Assembly: GCF_022846255.1 (NCBI RefSeq)
Contig: NZ_AP025682.1
Reading direction: 5' to 3' (one strand)
Length of the DNA stretch: 64,000 bases
Origin: Escherichia coli
GTDB taxonomy: Bacteria; Pseudomonadota; Gammaproteobacteria; Enterobacterales; Enterobacteriaceae
Positions 3,699 through 23,133 of the stretch are shown piece after piece. Below the pieces are notes generated by a model. It worked only from the letters and a program-made list of their open reading frames with translations, was not told the origin of the DNA and made no database searches. Made by a program: the position numbers and the translations under genes. The number at the start of each line of letters is the position of its first letter. The stretch's first letter is position 1.

Positions 3699-4180
3699 AA
3701 ACAGACTTCACGCTCAATCTCACGGCGAGCCATCAGCCCTTTCCATTGATTACCGCCAGCGTATGTCCAACGCCGTAGCTGATCACATGCGCCTTTGATA
3801 TCGCCCTGGTTTATTTTGCGAAGAAGCGTCGATGTTCTGAAATTGCCAGCGCCCACGTTGTAAACGAATGAGTAAAGAGCGCCGCGCGTTGTTTCCGGTA
3901 TATCGACTTTGATGTACGGGTTAATTTGTCTGGCGACAGTGGCAAGGTCTTTATTCAAGAGTGCTTTGCATTCTGCTTTGGTATACGTTTTACCGAGCAT
4001 GATGTCTTTTCCTGTATGCCCGTGACATACAGTCCATACACCAACAATATCTTTGTATGGTATGTAGCTGACACCTTCCAGACCATCGTTACCACCTGGG
4101 CCAGTGATTAACACTGATGCTATAGCAATTGCTCCGCCACCAATAGCAGCAGCAACGGCTTTTCGTAATGATGGAGGCAT
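3683..4180 (-). CDS. R: SAR endolysin (phage 21 R-type lysozyme)
   Basis: 165 aa; N-terminal Gly/Ala-rich signal-anchor-release segment [23 protein letters not shown] then lysozyme-like domain. Confidence 0.9.
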
Positions 4181-13467: not shown

Positions 13468-14253
13468 ATGAGTACAGCACTCGCAACGCTGGCAGGGAAG
13501 CTGGCTGAACGTGTCGGCATGGATTCTGTCGACCCACAGGAACTGATCACCACTCTTCGCCAGACAGCATTTAAAGGCGATGCCAGCGATGCGCAGTTCA
13601 TCGCATTGCTGATCGTCGCCAACCAGTACGGCCTTAATCCGTGGACGAAAGAAATTTACGCCTTCCCTGATAAGCAGAACGGCATCGTTCCGGTGGTGGG
13701 CGTTGATGGCTGGTCCCGTATCATCAATGAAAACCAGCAGTTTGATGGCATGGACTTTGAGCAGGACAATGAATCCTGCACATGCCGGATTTACCGCAAG
13801 GACCGTAATCATCCGATCTGCGTTACCGAGTGGATGGATGAATGCCGCCGCGAACCATTCAAAACCCGCGAAGGCAGAGAAATCACGGGGCCGTGGCAGT
13901 CGCATCCCAAACGGATGTTACGTCATAAAGCCATGATTCAGTGTGCCCGTCTGGCCTTCGGATTTGCTGGTATCTATGACAAGGATGAAGCCGAGCGCAT
14001 TGTCGAAAATACCGCATACACTGTAGAACGTCAGCCGGAACGCGACATCACTCCGGTTAACGATGAAACCATGCAGGAGATTAACACTCTGCTGATCGCC
14101 CTGGATAAAACATGGGATGACGACTTATTGCCGCTCTGTTCCCAGATATTTCGCCGCGACATTCGCGCATCGTCAGAACTGACACAGGCCGAAGCAGTGA
14201 AAGCTCTTGGATTCCTGAAACAGAAAGCCACTGAGCAGAAGGTGGCAGCATGA
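13468..14253 (+). CDS. bet: Bet (Red-beta recombinase)
   Basis: 261 aa, [32 protein letters not shown]... Confidence 0.95.
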
Positions 14254-14930
14254 CACCGGACATTATCCTGCAGCGTACCGGGATCGACGTGAGAGCTGTC
14301 GAACAGGGGGATGATGCGTGGCACAAATTACGGCTCGGCGTCATCACCGCTTCAGAAGTTCACAATGTGATAGCAAAACCCCGCACCGGAAAAAAGTGGC
14401 CTGACATGAAAATGTCCTACTTTCACACCCTGCTGGCTGAGATTTGCACCGGTGTGGCTCCGGAAGTTAACGCTAAGGCGCTGGCCTGGGGAAAACAGTA
14501 CGAGAACGACGCCAGAGCCCTGTTTGAGTTTACTTCCGGCGTGAATGTTACTGAATCCCCGATCATCTATCGCGACGAAAGTATGCGCACCGCCTGCTCT
14601 CCCGATGGTTTATGCAGTGACGGCAATGGCCTTGAGCTGAAATGCCCGTTTACCTCCCGGGATTTCATGAAGTTCCGGCTCGGTGGTTTCGAGGCCATAA
14701 AATCGGCTTACATGGCCCAGGTGCAGTACAGCATGTGGGTGACGCGAAAAGATGCCTGGTACTTTGCCAACTATGACCCGCGTATGAAGCGTGAAGGCCT
14801 GCATTATGTCGTGATTGAGCAGAATGAAAAGTACATGGCGAATTTTGACGAGATGGTGCCGGAGTTCATCGAAAAAATGGACGTGGCACTGGCTGAAATT
14901 GGTTTTGTATTTGGGGAGCAATGGCGATGA
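14250..14930 (+). CDS. exo: Exo (Red-alpha exonuclease)
   Basis: 226 aa, [43 protein letters not shown]... Confidence 0.95.
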
Positions 14931-15663: not shown

Positions 15664-15885
15664 ATGGCGGACATCATTGATTCAGTATCAGAAATTGAAG
15701 AATTACAGCGCAATACAGCAATAAAAATGCGTCGTCTGAACCACCAGACTATATCTGCCACTCATTGTTGTGAGTGTGGCGATCCGATAGATGAACTAAG
15801 ACGTCTGGCCGTTCAGGGTTGTCGGACTTGTGCAAGTTGCCAGGAAGATCTGGAGCTTATCAGTAAACAGAGAGGTTCGAAGTGA
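15664..15885 (+). CDS. TraR/DksA-family C4 zinc-finger protein
   Basis: 73 aa with CCECGDPIDELRR...CRTCASC four-Cys motif. Confidence 0.6.
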   Translation: MADIIDSVSEIEELQRNTAIKMRRLNHQTISATHCCECGDPIDELRRLAVQGCRTCASCQEDLELISKQRGSK

Positions 15886-16091
15886 GCGAAATTAACTCTC
15901 AGGCACTGCGTGAAGCGGCGGAACGTGCAATTCCAGCAATGGAACGCCTGTTAATGTTGCCAGCTGATGATGATTTGTTAAGTGAACAGGAACTTAAAGA
16001 TTACGGTGTGGATATTGATGCGCTCAACGCCTTCAAATTTCTGGCCGGACCAGAAACCGTGCTGGCACTGCGCCGTCAGGAAGTTTTTTAG
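15882..16091 (+). CDS. Hypothetical acidic protein, last gene of the pL operon
   Basis: 69 aa, GTG start overlapping the TraR-like stop, so likely translationally coupled. Confidence 0.5.
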   Translation: MSEINSQALREAAERAIPAMERLLMLPADDDLLSEQELKDYGVDIDALNAFKFLAGPETVLALRRQEVF

Positions 16092-16120
16092 TACGATCAA
16101 TGGTTAACTCAACTCTCATG
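16034..16120 (-). CDS. Candidate 28-aa ORF downstream of the LexA-box promoter
   Basis: Strong SD GAGGAGGG 5 nt before ATG; MRVELTIDRTKKLPDGAVPARFLVRPEI; antisense to the 3' end of gene 15882..16091. Confidence 0.25.
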
Positions 16121-16138
16121 ATTCCCTCCTCATTGATT

Positions 16139-16189
16139 TACTGTGTGAATATACAGTTACTTTATAAACCTCTCATTTGGATTTTGCAA
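16139..16189 (-). promoter_or_regulatory. Putative LexA-repressed promoter
   Basis: Minus strand TTGCAA, 17-bp spacer, TATAAA, then TACTGTGTGAATATACAGTT on + (CTGT-N8-ACAG) covering the predicted start site. Confidence 0.5.
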
Positions 16190-16223
16190 TGTTTTAAGGG
16201 CACGAATTGCGAATAACCCTATA

Positions 16224-16256
16224 CAAAAAAACCCGCCGAAGCGGGTCTTATCTTTC
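16224..16256. terminator. Bidirectional intrinsic terminator
   Basis: AAAAAAA-CCCGC-CGAA-GCGGG-TCTTATCTTTC; strong U-tract for minus-strand transcripts, weaker for the plus-strand pL operon. Confidence 0.6.
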
Positions 16257-16257
16257 A

Positions 16258-16431
16258 TTAATGCTTAGTCCTTACAGGAAAAGACCAGCATTTATATCCG
16301 TATGCGTGTGCATCCAAAACTCGGCGCTCTGAGTCAGGCGTCCCAGCTTTAGCTCGCGCCCTGCGATAACGACATTTTACCCAGCGGAAACCATCCGGAA
16401 GTTTTTTGGTAGGAATTTCTTTCAAAGCCAT
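16258..16431 (-). CDS. Candidate 58-aa basic ORF
   Basis: ATG with GAGG 7 nt upstream; MALKEIPTKKLPDGFRWVKCRYRRARAKAG...; below the ORF-track size cutoff. Confidence 0.2.
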   Translation of the reverse strand: MALKEIPTKKLPDGFRWVKCRYRRARAKAGTPDSERRVLDAHAYGYKCWSFPVRTKH

Positions 16432-16580
16432 AAATAAACCTCGTTCCAGGCGAGCACTTCCCTGAAACTTGATAAAAATATGGGGATCCGCTAATGTACT
16501 GTTGTTGACGCAGTACTGATTGCGGGTGCTCTAACATCCCCAATCCGAGCCCTTCCCCGGCAAAGGAAGGGCTCAAATTC

Positions 16581-17111
16581 TTATGAAGGCTTCACATACG
16601 CCTTCAAAATCGACATAATACGCTCAGCTTCTTCCATCGTGATGTTGGTAGGCAACCCCTGAACTGTAATCATTGCCCCTGTTTCAGGTCGAACAACGAT
16701 CGGTAAATTGAAAGTCTGCACTTTCTCATGTCTTGCAGCTTTAGCTTTCTCCATCTTCTGCTCCACCGCATCAAACCCATCTAAATTTCCTTCGGTGTCT
16801 GCCAAGTTGACTAAAGTCCCCACTCGCGTGTACTCCTCAAACTTATTGACAGCACTTTTAAACCGGCTTCGATAATTATGAATGGTGGATTCACTGGGCT
16901 TGTTTGCCTGAGTTTCAGCATAACGAGTAATGAGGTCTTCAACGTTCAGGTCGCGCACATCATCGTTGTCACTCGTGTCGACCACAGATAACAGCAGCAA
17001 CGCAGAATTTTTTAAGTTGCGAGCTGTTGCTTCGTTGATCAGCCCCAAGTTAGGCAACTTCATAAGAAAATCGAAGAATGCTTGCGTTGAGTAATTATCG
17101 TTCATAAGCAT
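16581..17111 (-). CDS. Hypothetical protein, 176 aa, no recognisable family
   Basis: ORF track; ATG start; hairpin GAGCCCTTCC...GGAAGGGCTC just after the stop. Confidence 0.6.
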   Translation of the reverse strand: MLMNDNYSTQAFFDFLMKLPNLGLINEATARNLKNSALLLLSVVDTSDNDDVRDLNVEDLITRYAETQANKPSESTIHNYRSRFKSAVNKFEEYTRVGTLVNLADTEGNLDGFDAVEQKMEKAKAARHEKVQTFNLPIVVRPETGAMITVQGLPTNITMEEAERIMSILKAYVKPS

Positions 17112-17156
17112 CTCTCATTGTTATCCATAGGTGTAGTGTAGATTCAGAGGTTTTAC

Positions 17157-17196
17157 CGATCAATGTTTTTTTTATCGATCGATCAATCTTTTTTTA
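17157..17196 (-). promoter_or_regulatory. GATC-clustered direct repeats in the leader of the 176-aa gene
   Basis: Three GATC within 27 bp; two copies of CGATCAAT each followed by a T-run, 45-85 bp upstream of the start codon. Confidence 0.35.
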
Positions 17197-17337
17197 AATC
17201 TAACCAATCCCACCCACTTAAAAACACTCAACAACATTTCACCCCCTCAGAAACAAAATAAAATAAACTATATAAAACAACAAAATACACAGATCTATAA
17301 AACAGACAACCGCCCCCGCCTCCCCCACCCCATACTG
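17186..17337 (-). repeat. Strand-asymmetric tract: G-depleted on +, G-rich on -
   Basis: About 6 G in ~150 nt on +; minus strand has GGGGTGGGGGAGGCGGGGGCGG (17310-17331) and further G-runs. Confidence 0.45.
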
Positions 17338-17407
17338 AATTTAGATACAGCCTTAGTTAATCAACCTTCGTTCACCAGAGCAGCACATATGCCTTCGGAC
17401 TTTTTAG

Positions 17408-17995
17408 TTAAGCCACAAATGGCAGTTTGCACAGTTCTGGTAGATTTGCCCTTACCAGAGCCTCCGCGAATTGTGGAGGTACGGCATTTCCGCATCTGGC
17501 GACCTGTTTATCCTTCGCATACTTCACGCCACGATAATCTTGGTCGATGATGTACCAGTCCGGGAAGCCCTGCGCCCGGTACAGTTCACGCGGCTGTAAC
17601 ATGCGCATACCAATATCAACAATGCGATACGTCACGCCATCGATCACCACCAGCCCGGTACAATCCTCGCCACAGTATTTACGCAGGAACGACAGCGTTT
17701 GTTGCGCGCGTTCTTCGTCGTACTCATCTACGGCAAGATGGGTTTCAACGTTCCCTACATGCAGGCCACCAGCCGTGACAGTCGGCATTGGCGCGTCGGT
17801 GCGTTGTCCATCCCGGCAGGTTCCGCGCAATTTAACCAGGTGAGAAGCAACCACAGCATGGTGATCGACGGTGGTCACAGAATGCATCGGCTCATCCATC
17901 CCCACTTCGGCAATAAACCGGTAAAGGTGTTCGCGATAAAGGTGAATATCAATGACTAAATCAGCAGCAGAAAGCAAAAGAATTTTTAGGTACAA
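17408..17995 (-). pseudogene. Remnant of a DNA cytosine-C5 methyltransferase (C-terminal part only)
   Basis: Motif IX-like RMLQPRELYRAQGFPDWY and motif X-like ARCGNAVPP present; no FxGxGG or PCQ motifs; ORF opens only with TTG. Confidence 0.6.
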
Positions 17996-18065
17996 TCAAA
18001 ATCACTTTTTGTTGTTAACTATTTGATGAACTACAAGGATAAGATCATGTATCAGCAAATCATTT

Positions 18066-18356
18066 TTGAAGAAGGAAAAGAACCAAGAGTGCACACAAGC
18101 CACCAAGACATCAAGACATCAAGACATCAAGACATCAAGACATCAAGACATCAAGTCTATCGAAATAAGTGATAACAGTGGAAAAGTTCAAGAGATTTCG
18201 GTTATGGAGTTCAAGGATACCAGAGGAGATGTTTTTTATGCTTACAACTATGCTTATTCTGGTAAAAAACCATCAAATGACGAAATCTATAAGGCTATTG
18301 ATGAGCTAAAGCCAATCGGTGAAAAATTCGAAATGTCTAAGACTATAAGCGATTAG
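18066..18356 (+). CDS. Hypothetical small protein containing an octanucleotide tandem repeat
   Basis: ORF track (TTG start, no SD); upstream ATG at 18047 with AAGGA SD is out of frame by one repeat unit. Confidence 0.4.
   Translation: MKKEKNQECTQATKTSRHQDIKTSRHQDIKSIEISDNSGKVQEISVMEFKDTRGDVFYAYNYAYSGKKPSNDEIYKAIDELKPIGEKFEMSKTISD
18102..18157 (+). repeat. Octanucleotide tandem repeat ATCAAGAC
   Basis: Five perfect units at 18110-18149 flanked by ACCAAGAC and ATCAAGTC; unit length is not a multiple of 3. Confidence 0.9.
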
Positions 18357-18518
18357 ATAAATCTGTTTTCAACATTGCAGCAAAATCATAGGAAGAACGC
18401 GACAAAGTTAACATGCTATCGCGAACAGTCGTTAACATCACCTAAAGTCAGCGAATCGCGATACATGGAAATGTCTGGGAAGAACGCCAAGAAGTAAGCG
18501 CAATTTGAACAAATGCGA

Positions 18519-18545
18519 ACCCGCCGAGTGCGGGTTTTCTTTTAT
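18519..18545 (+). terminator. Intrinsic terminator
   Basis: ACCCGC-CGAGT-GCGGGT followed by TTTCTTTTAT. Confidence 0.6.
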
Positions 18546-18586
18546 CTGAACTCGCTACGGCGGGTTTTGTTTTATGGAGACAAGAA

Positions 18587-18931
18587 ATGTCAGATTTGGC
18601 TATGAAGGTTTTGAAATGGCAATCGACTGGCGATGTTGGCATCAGTAGCGCAACTCTTGCCTCAATCGCATGTGGACTGAAAAAGAATATCTATGGTCAT
18701 AGCTTCGGTGCTCCACATGACGCAGCCGATTTCCGACGATGCGTTGCGCTTGTCGAGCAGATTCCAGAAATCAGGGATTCATTCGACAAGGTTGCAAAGC
18801 GCGTTCCGGCATTCAAAGGCATCCTCAACGAATGGGATTCTCTCGTTGCTCTGTTGAAGTCTGAAATGAAGATACACGGAAACAAAGCACCAGAGACTTA
18901 CAGAAGAATTAGCGAGTTACGCAAGGACTAA
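18587..18931 (+). CDS. Hypothetical protein, 114 aa, no recognisable family
   Basis: ORF track; ATG with GGAGA SD; MSDLAMKVLKWQSTGDVGISSATLASIACGLKK... Confidence 0.55.
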   Translation: MSDLAMKVLKWQSTGDVGISSATLASIACGLKKNIYGHSFGAPHDAADFRRCVALVEQIPEIRDSFDKVAKRVPAFKGILNEWDSLVALLKSEMKIHGNKAPETYRRISELRKD

Positions 18932-19036: not shown

Positions 19037-19255
19037 ATGTACTTGACACTTCAGGAGTGGAACGCACGCCAGCGACGCCCAAGAAGCCTTGAAACAGTTC
19101 GTCGATGGGTGCGCGAATGCAGGATATTCCCTCCTCCGGTTAAGGATGGAAGAGAGTATCTGTTCCACGAATCAGCGGTAAAGGTTGACTTAAATCGACC
19201 AGTAACAGGTAGCCTTTTGAAGAGGATCAGAAATGGGAAGAAGGCGAAGTCATGA
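19037..19255 (+). CDS. xis: Excisionase Xis
   Basis: 72 aa, MYLTLQEWNARQRRPRSLETVRRWVRECRIFPPPVKDGREYLFHESAVKVDL... near-identical to lambda Xis as recalled. Confidence 0.9.
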   Translation: MYLTLQEWNARQRRPRSLETVRRWVRECRIFPPPVKDGREYLFHESAVKVDLNRPVTGSLLKRIRNGKKAKS

Positions 19256-20306
19256 GCGCCGGGATTTACCCCCTAACCTTTATATAAGAAACAATGGATA
19301 TTACTGCTACAGGGACCCAAGGACGGGTAAAGAGTTCGGATTAGGCAGAGACAGGAGGATAGCAATTACTGAAGCAATACAGGCCAATATTGAGTTACTC
19401 TCAGACAGCGGACGCAAATCACTAATAGACAGAATTAAAGGCGGTGACGCAATCACTCTTCATGTGTGGCTTGACCGATATGAAACAATCCTCACCGAAA
19501 GGGGGATCAGGCCGAAAACTCTACTCGACTACGCCAGCAAAATCAGGGCAATCCGAAGAAAATTGCCGGACAAACCGCTCACTGACATATCAACGAAAGA
19601 AGTGGCAGCAATGCTAAACACCTACGTAGCAGAAGGTAAAGCAGCTTCCGCAAAATTAATCAGGTCAACCCTTGTTGACGTTTTTCGTGAAGCAATAGCC
19701 GAGGGGCATGTGGCAACGAATCCGGTAACAGCAACCCGTACAGCAAAGTCAGAAGTAAGGCGCTCAAGGCTGACAGCTAATGAGTATGTCGAGATTTACC
19801 ATGCAGCCGAACCTCTCCCTATCTGGCTAAGGCTGGCGATGGATTTGGCCGTCGTTACAGGGCAGAGAGTCGGCGATTTGTGCAGAATGAAATGGTCAGA
19901 CATAAACGACAACCATCTTCACATTGAACAGAGTAAAACAGGGGCTAAACTCGCCATTCCGCTAACGCTAACGATTGACGCGCTCAATATCTCATTGGCT
20001 GATACACTACAGAAATGCAGGGAGGCCAGCAGCAGTGAAACTATAATCGCATCAAAGCATCACGATCCGCTTTCCCCGAAAACAGTATCAAAGTATTTTA
20101 CAAAGGCGAGAAATGCATCTGGACTCTCATTTGATGGAAACCCGCCAACATTCCATGAACTGCGTAGCCTGTCAGCGAGGCTATACCGGAACCAGATTGG
20201 CGATAAGTTTGCTCAACGTCTTCTCGGGCATAAATCAGACTCAATGGCGGCGCGGTATAGGGACAGCCGTGGACGGGAATGGGACAAAATTGAAATCGAC
20301 AAATGA
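19233..20306 (+). CDS. int: Tyrosine integrase, lambda family, HK022-like
   Basis: 357 aa; N-terminal arm-binding domain identical to lambda Int, central and catalytic domains diverged; RSLSARLY and HKSD motifs. Confidence 0.95.
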   Translation: MGRRRSHERRDLPPNLYIRNNGYYCYRDPRTGKEFGLGRDRRIAITEAIQANIELLSDSGRKSLIDRIKGGDAITLHVWLDRYETILTERGIRPKTLLDYASKIRAIRRKLPDKPLTDISTKEVAAMLNTYVAEGKAASAKLIRSTLVDVFREAIAEGHVATNPVTATRTAKSEVRRSRLTANEYVEIYHAAEPLPIWLRLAMDLAVVTGQRVGDLCRMKWSDINDNHLHIEQSKTGAKLAIPLTLTIDALNISLADTLQKCREASSSETIIASKHHDPLSPKTVSKYFTKARNASGLSFDGNPPTFHELRSLSARLYRNQIGDKFAQRLLGHKSDSMAARYRDSRGREWDKIEIDK

Positions 20307-20400: not shown

Positions 20401-23133
20401 GTGAATTTAACCCTGACCCGAAGACTCTGGATGGGCTTTGCCCTGATGGCGCTGTTAACCCTGACCAGTACCCTGGTGGGATGGTACAACCTGCGCTTTA
20501 TCAGCCTGGTGGAAAAAGACAACACTCAGGCATTGATTCCTACCATGAATATGGCGCGCCAGTTGAGCGAAGCCAGCGCCTGGGAACTTTTCGCCGCGCA
20601 GAACCTGACCAGTGCCGATAACGAAAAGATGTGGCAGGCGCAGGGGCGAATGCTCACCGCACAAAGCCTGAAGATTAATGCGTTGCTGCAAGCGTTACGG
20701 GAACAAGGTTTTGACACCACCGCTATTGAACAACAGGAGCAGGAGATCTCCCGTTCGTTACGTCAGCAAGGGGAACTGGTGGGACAGCGTTTGCAACTGC
20801 GCCAGCAACAACAGCAACTCAGTCAGCAGATAGTCGCCGCCGCCGATGAGATCGCACGCCTGGCGCAAGGTCAGGCGAATAATGCGGCAACCTCCGCCGG
20901 AGCGACCCAGGCCGGGATTTACGATTTGATCGAACAACATCAGCGTCAGGCCGCAGAAAGTGCACTCGATCGGCTGATTGATATCGATCTTGAGTATGTT
21001 AACCAGATGAATGAACTGCGCCTTAGCGCCCTACGGGTGCAGCAAATGGTGATGAATCTGGGGCTGGAACAGATCCAGAAAAATGCGCCAACGCTGGAAA
21101 AGCAGCTCAATAATGCGGTGAAAATTCTGCAACGTCGGCAAATACGCATTGAAGATCCGGGTGTTCGTACTCAGGTAGCAACAACGTTAACTACCGTTAG
21201 CCAATATAGCGATTTGCTGGCGCTGTATCAGCAGGACAGTGAAATCAGCAATCACCTGCAAACTCTCGCCCAAAATAACATCGCCCAATTCGCGCAGTTT
21301 AGTAGCGAAGTCAGTCAGCTGGTCGACACCATTGAGCTGCGTAATCAGCACGGACTGGCGCATCTGGAAAAAGCCAGTGCACGCGGGCAATACAGCCTGT
21401 TATTGCTGGGGATGGTTTCACTTTGCGCACTGATACTGATCCTCTGGCGCGTGGTTTATCGCTCAGTCACGCGTCCACTTGCCGAACAAACGCAGGCACT
21501 GCAACGACTGCTGGACGGTGATATTGACTCCCCTTTCCCGGAAACCGCTGGCGTACGGGAACTGGACACCATCGGGCGGCTGATGGATGCGTTTCGCAGC
21601 AGTGTTCATGCACTGAATCGCCACCGTGAACAGTTGGCGGCGCAGGTCAAAGCGCGTACAGCTGAATTGCAGGAACTGGTGATAGAACACCGACAGGCAC
21701 GGGCGGAAGCAGAAAAAGCCAACCAGGCAAAATCAGCGTTTCTGGCGGCGATGAGCCATGAGATCCGCACACCGCTGTACGGTATTCTCGGTACCGCACA
21801 GCTACTGGCAGATAACCCCGCACTTAACGCTCAGCGTGATGATTTGCGGGCAATTACCGACTCTGGCGAATCGTTGCTGACCATCCTCAACGATATTCTC
21901 GATTATTCGGCTATCGAAGCAGGCGGCAAGAATGTTTCGGTCAGCGATGAACCCTTTGAACCGCGCCCGTTGCTGGAAAGTACCCTGCAATTAATGAGCG
22001 GACGGGTGAAAGGTCGCCCGATTCGCCTGGCAACGGCAATTGCCGACGATGTACCGACTGCGTTAATGGGCGATCCGCGGCGTATTCGTCAGGTCATTAC
22101 CAACCTGTTGAGCAACGCCCTGCGTTTCACCGACGAAGGGCACATTATCCTGCGTAGTCGCACTGATGGCGAACAATGGCTGGTCGAAGTGGAAGACAGC
22201 GGTTGCGGTATTGATCCCGCGAAACTGGCAGAAATCTTCCAGCCATTTGTTCAGGTAAGCAGCAAACGCGGCGGAACCGGGCTGGGGCTGACTATCAGTA
22301 GCCGTCTGGCCCAGGCGATGGGCGGCGAACTGAGCGCCACCAGCACGCCGGAGGTTGGAAGCTGTTTTTGTTTACGCTTGCCGTTACGTATTGCCACTGC
22401 ACCCGTGCCAAAAACAGTCAATCAGGCGGTACGTCTGGACGATTTGCGTTTGCTGTTAATTGAAGATAACCCGCTCACCCAGCGAATTACTGTCGAAATG
22501 CTGAACACCAGTGGTGCGCAGGTCGTTGCAGTAGGAAATGCCGCGCAGGCTTTAGAGACACTGCAAAATAGTGAACCATTTGCTGTCGCACTGGTGGATT
22601 TTGATCTGCCGGATATCGACGGCATTACGCTTGCCCGGCAACTGGCACAGCAATATCCGTCGCTGGTTTTGATTGGCTTTAGCGCTCATGTCATCGACGA
22701 AACACTGCGCCAGCGTACCAGTTCGCTATTTCGCGGGATTATCCCTAAACCGGTGCCGCGTGAAGTGCTCGCTCAATTACTGGCGCACTATCTCCAACTG
22801 CAAGTCAAAAATGATCAACCGCTGGATGTATCGCAACTCAATGAAGATGCTCATTTAATGGGGGCGGAGAAGATCCACGAATGGCTGATATTATTTAAAC
22901 AACATGCCCTGCCGCTTCTCGATGAAATCGACATTGCCCGCGCCAGTCAGGATAACGAGAAAATAAAGCGTGCCGCACATCAGCTAAAAAGCAGTTGCTC
23001 GAGTCTGGGAATGCGTAGCGCCAGCCAGCAATGCGCACAACTGGAGCAGCAGCCATTATCTGCCCCCCTTCCACACGAAGAAATTACACGCAGTGTTGCC
23101 GCTCTGGAAGCATGGTTAATAAGAAAGACCTGA
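20401..23133 (+). CDS. torS: TorS hybrid sensor kinase
   Basis: 910 aa, [33 protein letters not shown]..., HisKA/HATPase/receiver/HPt; GTG start. Confidence 0.95.

Follow-up and report, generated by a model that had tools for sequence, protein, structure and literature searches.

How did only the last part of a DNA methyltransferase gene come to lie backwards in a prophage operon, and does what is left of it still have a role there? The question arises from a 64-kb stretch of Escherichia coli DNA (hereafter, the window), whose + strand encodes the early-left arm of a lambda-like prophage (Table 1). The end of this prophage adjoins torS (20401-23133), and E. coli E2348/69 shares 98.8% identity with the window over torS-yccM. 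The strand opposite to the prophage operon carries, between exo and xis, a methyltransferase remnant that forms part of an ORF of 195 aa (17408..17995, - strand), which starts with TTG and includes the strings RMLQPRELYRAQGFPDWY and ARCGNAVPP. A first-pass annotation, made from the letters alone, considered this locus as a C5-cytosine methyltransferase gene interrupted by a later insertion of AT-rich DNA, whose remnant could still be translated. The explanation favored here, with a probability of roughly 0.87, is instead that the stub is a non-functional methyltransferase remnant representing the cut end of an inverted nin-region fragment, which would have been founded by illegitimate recombination and spread later by homologous recombination.

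Table 1. Positions in the window of the features discussed, followed by the other copies of the scarred block and by intact relatives of the methyltransferase
Feature	Position or size	Strand	Remarks
bet	13468-14253	+	early-left arm of prophage
exo	14250-14930	+	early-left arm of prophage
ead/Ea22-like gene, 5' 190 bp	15882..16071	+	93-97% identity to E. coli prophage ea22-like genes; phrog_250
left joint	16059..16071		13-nt microhomology GTGCTGGCACTGC between ea22-like gene and dinI antisense strand
dinI promoter and first 20 codons	16059..16177	-	ATG 16119; truncated at left joint
self-contained gene module	16223..17298	-	1.08 kb; C-poor leader, 176/174-aa ORF, 57-aa ORF, terminator
intrinsic terminator, strong	16249-16228	-	closes 176-aa module
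57-aa ORF	16431-16258	-	part of 16223..17298 module
176/174-aa ORF	17111/17105-16581	-	phrog_2602 and phrog_33859 for module
spacer, methyltransferase stop to 176-aa module	17299..17407	-	109 bp; donor-specific; G-rich run GGGGTGGGGGAGGCGGGGGCGG
methyltransferase remnant	17408..17911	-	3' 504 bp, 167 codons and stop; H6 residues 495-662
right joint	17897..17911		15-nt microhomology CATCCCCACTTCGGC between methyltransferase antisense strand and ASCH gene
ASCH-domain gene, 3' tail	17897..17959	+	about 63 bp, about 20 codons and stop; 5' part lost
non-homologous 5' extension of TTG ORF	17912..17995	-	28 codons; antisense ASCH tail and AT-rich DNA
AT-rich insert	17979..18531	+	GC 0.37; repeat-bearing 96-aa gene and terminator; phrog_7123
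xis	19037-19255	+	early-left arm of prophage
int	19233-20306	+	early-left arm of prophage
A-type, leftward operon, prophage at torS			L007, L032, L033
A-type, leftward operon, prophage at ybhC			L013, L028, L034
A-type, leftward operon, adjoining RND efflux-pump genes			L010
B-type, different phage, between nin-like genes and terminase			L006, L008, L009, L011, L012, L029-L031, L035
intact methyltransferase, E. coli H6 prophage WP_073464677	662 aa		stub 97% identical, protein
intact methyltransferase, Klebsiella phage 5 LV-2017 ARB15725	715 aa		stub 78% identical, protein
intact methyltransferase, Escherichia phage Flotzy XNS38015	645 aa		stub 71% identical, protein

The two strings correspond to motifs IX and X of C5-methyltransferases and, as the first-pass annotation had noticed, both are found in the minus-strand ORF, inside its match to PF00145. 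This match comprises only ORF residues 97-182 and profile positions 239-320 of 324 (E 1.5e-07; 31.6 bits, with a cut-off of 22) and is a domain fragment. With NCBIfam TIGR00675, whose cut-off is 100.65 bits, the ORF scores 21.5 bits and the intact enzyme of the E. coli H6 prophage 54.7 bits, and the PHROG profiles named 'DNA methyltransferase' match the ORF at their C-terminal ends only (positions 214-393 of 400 in phrog_23072). Related prophages with an intact gene, as presumed in that annotation, do exist: searches of phage genomes (tblastn) and of E. coli genomes (blastn) gave full-length relatives of 645-715 aa, and all of them are located in nin regions and run in the same direction as the rightward operon. 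A protein-database search with the ORF, in which the matches listed do not exceed 342 aa and the H6 enzyme is missing, allows no count of such full-length relatives, and no account of this methyltransferase family or of its remnant was found in the literature.

The intact homologues carry FAGGGGAS, an SPDC cysteine region, and ENV towards the N-terminus (in the H6 enzyme, Pfam aligns residues 6-122 with profile positions 4-115, from motif I to the end of motif IV), followed by a long middle with repeated TVTAGG-like units and by motifs IX and X at the extreme end. When three of them (662, 715, and 645 aa) were compared with the whole 64 kb by tblastn, only their last 157-162 residues matched, at 17426/17429-17899/17911; further matches above noise were weak and placed the internal repeats of the homologues onto the same 17426-17911 stretch, and no second methyltransferase piece was detected in the 64 kb. 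Thus, motifs I-VIII are missing from the ORF, from the DNA upstream, where their presence in frame would have pointed to a misread start, and from the window as a whole. No counterpart of H6 FAGGGGAS (residues 9-16, motif I) was found in the ORF or the window, and the motif IV catalytic cysteine (PC), motif VI (ENV), and motif VIII had no tblastn match in the 64 kb. The absence of AdoMet-binding and catalytic motifs, proposed from the letters alone, is therefore borne out both by the portion of the Pfam profile covered and by tblastn. Devoid of these motifs, the stub would be unable to methylate DNA and, since it is homologous to C5-methyltransferases and fails their catalytic features, it is not classed as an enzyme.

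The breakpoint can be located by alignment to the intact prophage genes. DNA homology to the H6 gene (92.4% identity from 17911 to 17426) breaks off sharply at 17911, which corresponds to residue 495 of the 662 of the H6 enzyme, at the protein level the identity is 97% over H6 residues 495-656 (tblastn, E 1e-100), well outside the range of chance, and homology to every intact homologue stops within 17899-17911. It follows that three quarters of the gene are gone: the view of a C-terminal portion was correct, but what remains is a quarter of the gene and not half of it, comprising the last TVTAGG repeat, motif IX, and motif X. Since methyltransferase homology stops at 17911, codons 1-28 of the TTG-started ORF are not methyltransferase sequence. 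The adjoining DNA belongs to an unrelated module on the other strand, the tail of an ASCH-domain gene, which begins at 17897 and shows 89-91% identity to the annotated ASCH-gene ends at 4001-4066 of reference loci L004 and L005, the E. coli HB37 and H19 prophages. In these prophages, the ASCH gene is immediately upstream of ORF114-xis-int. Thus, a methyltransferase gene and an ASCH gene, both without their 5' parts, abut head to head at the right joint. In an ungapped three-way comparison of the 15-nt overlap, each surrogate parent agrees with the window at 14 of 15 positions, and the parents agree with each other at 13 of 15; H6 differs at 17907 only and HB37/H19 at 17902 only, so that the crossover can be placed at about 17903-17906.

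The remnant constitutes the right edge of a foreign fragment of 1,825 bp (16072-17896), inverted between the truncated ea22-like and ASCH genes, which on the minus strand reads methyltransferase 3' end, spacer, 176-aa module, and dinI promoter with a 5' stub. In comparison with the HB37 prophage, this fragment takes the place of 1,837 bp (L004 2164-4000), made up of the remaining part of ea22, two more genes, and most of ASCH. At the left joint, the + strand operon (TraR/DksA, DUF1382, ead/Ea22-like) is homologous to E. coli prophages up to 16069-16071, where ea22 homology to HB37, H19, and N25 stops, while dinI homology stops at 16059. The resulting ORF (15882-16091) encodes a chimera of 69 aa with a tail derived from antisense dinI, and PF13935 is recognized on the called 69-aa product. 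The dinI stub, translated as MRVELTIDRTKKLPDGAVPA, is 73-80% identical to the dinI starts of mEp237 and of prophage loci L016-L025 and preserves a near-consensus LexA box (CTGTATATTCACACAG, 16156-16141). As both the LexA box and the start codon are retained, an SOS-inducible promoter may now drive transcription, in antisense direction, through the ea22 stub and the leftward operon's TraR-like genes.

The central part of the fragment, the 176-aa module, shows 74-83% identity over about 1 kb to the nin regions of Salmonella, Citrobacter, and Enterobacter prophages, in which dinI downstream of a module of this type is a recurrent arrangement; moreover, a methyltransferase followed by dinI is found in Klebsiella phage 5 LV-2017 and in mEp237. 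From these gene orders, the fragment resembles part of a nin region. The module could be transcribed from a promoter-like site, TTGATC-17-TACACT (17163-17135, 8 of 12 matches), and is probably the selected cargo of the fragment. The N-terminal domain of the 176-aa protein resembles the core-binding domain of integrases. Its 176-aa and 57-aa ORFs, as well as the 96-aa and 114-aa ORFs beyond the methyltransferase break, have no match in Pfam, NCBIfam, or PADLOC. The spacer that separates the module from the methyltransferase stop is outside the homology to any nin-region relative and has no match in IMG/VR viral contigs. Two side observations concern this part of the fragment. The leader (17112-17340, - strand) has a nearly C-free, G/T-rich coding strand, with a GC skew of -0.43 on the + strand; it includes the G-rich run, at about 17310-17331, and holds most of the sequence variation among copies. 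In addition, Rfam gave only sub-threshold matches over 15800-18700, among them RsmY (22 bits, E 0.014) and IsrK (21 bits, E 0.16) at 16226-16375 (- strand); these overlap the 57-aa ORF and the terminator and are probably due to chance.

The same scarred block, including both joints, is present in 17 other assemblies with 99.3-99.9% identity to the window, and these loci include two complete genomes and metagenome scaffolds. An assembly chimera is ruled out by the identical joints in these other assemblies. The block occurs in at least three prophage contexts besides that of the window, which are of two types (Table 1): A-type copies are in the leftward operon, and B-type copies belong to another phage, where they are flanked by nin-like genes and the terminase; one further scaffold (L026) shows the A-type leftward-operon context, with the integration site outside the visible DNA. 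Some 290 contigs that bear the name E. coli or Escherichia encode the identical 176-aa protein or its 174-aa start variant. Among 5,426 complete RefSeq E. coli genomes, none carries the scarred block, and the highest coverage of 17112-18070 is 51%, contributed by the intact H6 gene. A- and B-type copies differ mostly in the distal ASCH tail (17950-17973), which fits homologous crossovers in the flanks, and a single founding event followed by spread would be the simplest reading of the shared scar.

The AT-rich DNA, to which the first-pass annotation had attributed the interruption, is real, with a GC content of 0.34-0.40 across 17850-18450 against 0.55 for the remnant and with a repeat at 18096-18155, but the element begins at 17979 and does not touch the break. 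Its bounds are given by the homology to B-type phages, which stops at 17978, and by the homology to HB37, which restarts at 18532; it sits between the ASCH tail and ORF114, 68 bp past the methyltransferase break. The B-type prophages share the identical break and are devoid of the AT-rich element, whose insertion is an event separate from the break. Directly after the ASCH stop there is a stub of 24 codons (MTKSAAESK..., 17952-18026, + strand), whose start agrees with that of a 112-aa gene (MAKSAAERK...) found intact in B-type phages (L006 4822-5160). Only eight or nine codons of this gene (MTKSAAE...) precede the insert, which thus truncated another gene. As a separate observation, the 8-nt unit CAAGACAT that makes up the repeat is present in about 7.5 copies in the window (+40 nt), within a gene span of 18026-18356 (+ strand), and in about 1.5 copies in L007, L010, and L013, which have an intact 96-aa ORF (MNYKDKIMYQQ..., phrog_7123). 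In the window, the expansion shifts the frame of the ATG-started ORF, which reaches a stop at 18172, and the C-terminal part of the 96-aa gene is kept only by a TTG ORF (18066-18356). The metagenome scaffold L026 aligns gap-free over the expansion, which is therefore not an artefact of one assembly. Since any change in copy number of an 8-nt unit shifts the frame, phase variation of the 96-aa gene through this repeat is possible.

The arrangement of the donor and the order of events can be inferred as follows. The source would have been the nin region of another lambdoid phage with the order methyltransferase, 176-aa/57-aa module, dinI, and its intact methyltransferase gene would have encoded an orphan phage C5-cytosine enzyme of about 660 aa, of which the stub would represent the last 167 codons. 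Two illegitimate crossovers, at overlaps of 13 and 15 nt, would have inserted the fragment backwards into the ea22-to-ASCH stretch, with the loss of about 1.8 kb of resident genes; as the fragment was cut within a gene at either end, four stubs would have been left, namely methyltransferase 3', dinI 5', ea22 5', and ASCH 3'. Illegitimate versus homologous recombination in lambdoid mosaics has been treated previously (PMC3945230, PMC2327257), and about 30 bp has been given as the minimum for Red-beta recombination (PMC3945230). Both overlaps are shorter than this minimum, which points to illegitimate short-homology joining. The block would later have moved to other backbones through relaxed homologous recombination (PMC3945230, PMC2327257) in the flanking ea22 and ASCH sequence, and the stub would owe its persistence to the recent date of the event and to its physical linkage with the 176-aa module. 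Two preserved microhomology joints and a shared scar fit this combination of illegitimate founding and homologous spread. The founding backbone may have been either the leftward operon (A-type) or the nin region (B-type). A simple in-place inversion is ruled out, as the joints carry methyltransferase and dinI sequence and not the other halves of ea22 and ASCH. A donor with an intact methyltransferase directly upstream of the 176-aa module did not appear when 16072-17430 was compared by blastn with 50,697 phage records, where only dinI starts matched. Exact-pattern scans of IMG/VR for the junction, the G-rich spacer, and the methyltransferase 3' tail, and of JGI metagenomes and GTDB representative genomes for the latter, gave no match either, although such scans detect near-identical DNA only and their blanks are weak evidence.

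Three other explanations deserve consideration. That the AT-rich repeat DNA split, in place, an intact methyltransferase gene resident at this position, as initially proposed, would agree with the presence of AT-rich DNA carrying a separate gene upstream of the truncated end. Nevertheless, this scenario is barely credible, as the break adjoins the ASCH tail with the AT-rich DNA 68 bp beyond, the same break exists in B-type phages devoid of that element, and no N-terminal part is found past the insert or elsewhere in the window. Moreover, the stub is antisense in an operon where intact members of the family are not found; these are intact in nin regions, which argues that the remnant arrived already cut. 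A different possibility is that the stub is translated from an ATG at the joint into a separate polypeptide, comprising motifs IX and X and part of the target-recognition region, and acts in trans, either as the small subunit of a split methyltransferase or as a dead DNA-binding decoy. The TTG described as the only possible opening indeed begins the longest ORF, but in-frame ATGs are present at 17899 and 17887, directly beside the right joint. In addition, some gene callers report the ORF, databases hold many short C-terminal homologues, and the frame is open in 18 of 18 copies, which carries little information at a divergence of at most 0.6%. However, neither ATG has a Shine-Dalgarno sequence at a useful spacing, the sequence scan revealed no promoter-like site upstream of the remnant on the minus strand, and no partner ORF with motifs I-VIII is present within 64 kb. 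The TTG start lies beyond the conserved block, and the ORF has 195 or 189 aa depending on the context (in B-type phages, the 5' extension is different and the ORF begins MRSAADLAIN); gene callers report a product of 189 aa or 159 aa, sometimes with the label 'DNA_methylase', or leave the ORF uncalled. The short C-terminal homologues could have indicated a naturally short stand-alone protein, but the residue at which they begin varies, many are chimeras or partial sequences from contig ends, and they share no single conserved start that would make them a family. Motif X is structurally part of the large catalytic domain of C5-methyltransferases, and the fragment is thus unlikely to fold alone. 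Only five substitutions exist among the copies, three non-synonymous and two synonymous, with no indels, too few to decide on selection; two of the three non-synonymous ones affect residues that every homologue read conserves, M in DIGMRML and L in GLV, a pattern that hints at relaxed constraint. Thus, a role in trans is very unlikely, and translation of the remnant as a target-recognition-only protein, as suggested at first, is unlikely.

A more specific form of this idea, in which a product of about 159-163 aa from the joint ATG (17899/17887) is a catalytically dead DNA-binding fragment of the target-recognition region that benefits the prophage, is less probable still. If true, such a fragment might shield sites against a nuclease of the host or of a rival phage, or interfere with a related methyltransferase, and this benefit would help to account for the spread over several phage backbones. 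Alternatively, the stub could be kept as a cis element (upstream element, leader, or insulator) for the antisense 176-aa gene, since it always accompanies the 176-aa module in the scarred block. This option has a similarly slight chance to that of a role in trans. The related modules in nin regions have unrelated upstream neighbors, with homology from 17193-17298 only, which indicates that the module needs no methyltransferase DNA, and linkage inside a recent 2-kb block suffices to explain the co-occurrence. As far as can be judged from the letters, with no conserved start or expression signals recognizable, the stub is presumably not expressed, and at the sequence level it bears all the marks of a gene remnant at a lambdoid mosaic joint.

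Several known systems help to frame this interpretation as a non-functional remnant. With the orphan nin-region methyltransferases (H6, LV-2017, Flotzy; PF00145), the stub shares motifs IX and X and the last PMPTVTAGG repeat, but it lacks residues 1-494, including FAGGGG, SPDC, ENV, and most of the repeat insert, and is found on the opposite strand and in a different operon. The closest parallel is mEp237 gp46 ('DNA methyltransferase', 134 aa; annotated as similar to a Klebsiella methylase C-terminus), likewise a C-terminal-only remnant, with 81% identity over the common part. However, its breakpoint is about 40 residues further in, after a junk N-terminus (MDYGKQRRRRRK), and represents an independent event; gp46 is still in the nin region, co-directional, and looks like an in-place deletion, unlike the transplanted stub. 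Together with two other truncated or chimeric C-termini of the family (P0106 and P0015), it indicates that such methyltransferase debris is common. In the split C5-methyltransferases M.AquI (alpha/beta) and M.EcoHK31I, the C-terminal motifs are on a separate polypeptide, but in these systems motifs I-VIII are encoded by a partner gene next to it and the translation signals are proper, whereas the 64-kb window has no such partner and the stub no such signals. Morons and mosaic joints in lambdoid phages are a concept of Hendrix and Juhala. As with morons, a phage operon here harbors, in opposite orientation, a self-contained gene that has its own terminator and promoter-like site and, as with mosaic joints, the homology boundaries are sharp, fall inside genes, and would have been followed by spread via flanking homology. 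In contrast to such cases, both joints survive here, with microhomologies of 13-15 nt and four gene stubs.

For annotation, the 159-, 189-, and 195-aa 'DNA methylase' ORFs, which PADLOC-type scans do match, should be considered as a pseudogene fragment and not as methyltransferase, restriction-modification, or defence genes, and attention moves from the stub to the 176-aa module as the part likely to be selected. Although the locus is a fresh instance of a well-known type of feature and unsurprising in phage genomics, it provides a clean example for the debate on phage mosaicism, with one probable founding event, both joints kept, and the same scar in several backbones. Finally, some minor features of the methyltransferase family can be mentioned. 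Over 17426-17911 (- strand), the stub is itself mosaic with respect to the H6 gene (L003): the first 350 nt diverge by 2% (7 differences), the last 136 nt by 22% (30 differences). In the intact family (L003 4980-6968; L001 1348-3495; proteins P0001-P0120), the middle insert contains three or four repeated units of the types ..H.VTT..HHA.. and ..TVTAGG.., and derivatives exist in which the family sequence is fused to another N-terminus (P0106) or to PF26211 (P0015). These middle repeats may be recombination hot spots.
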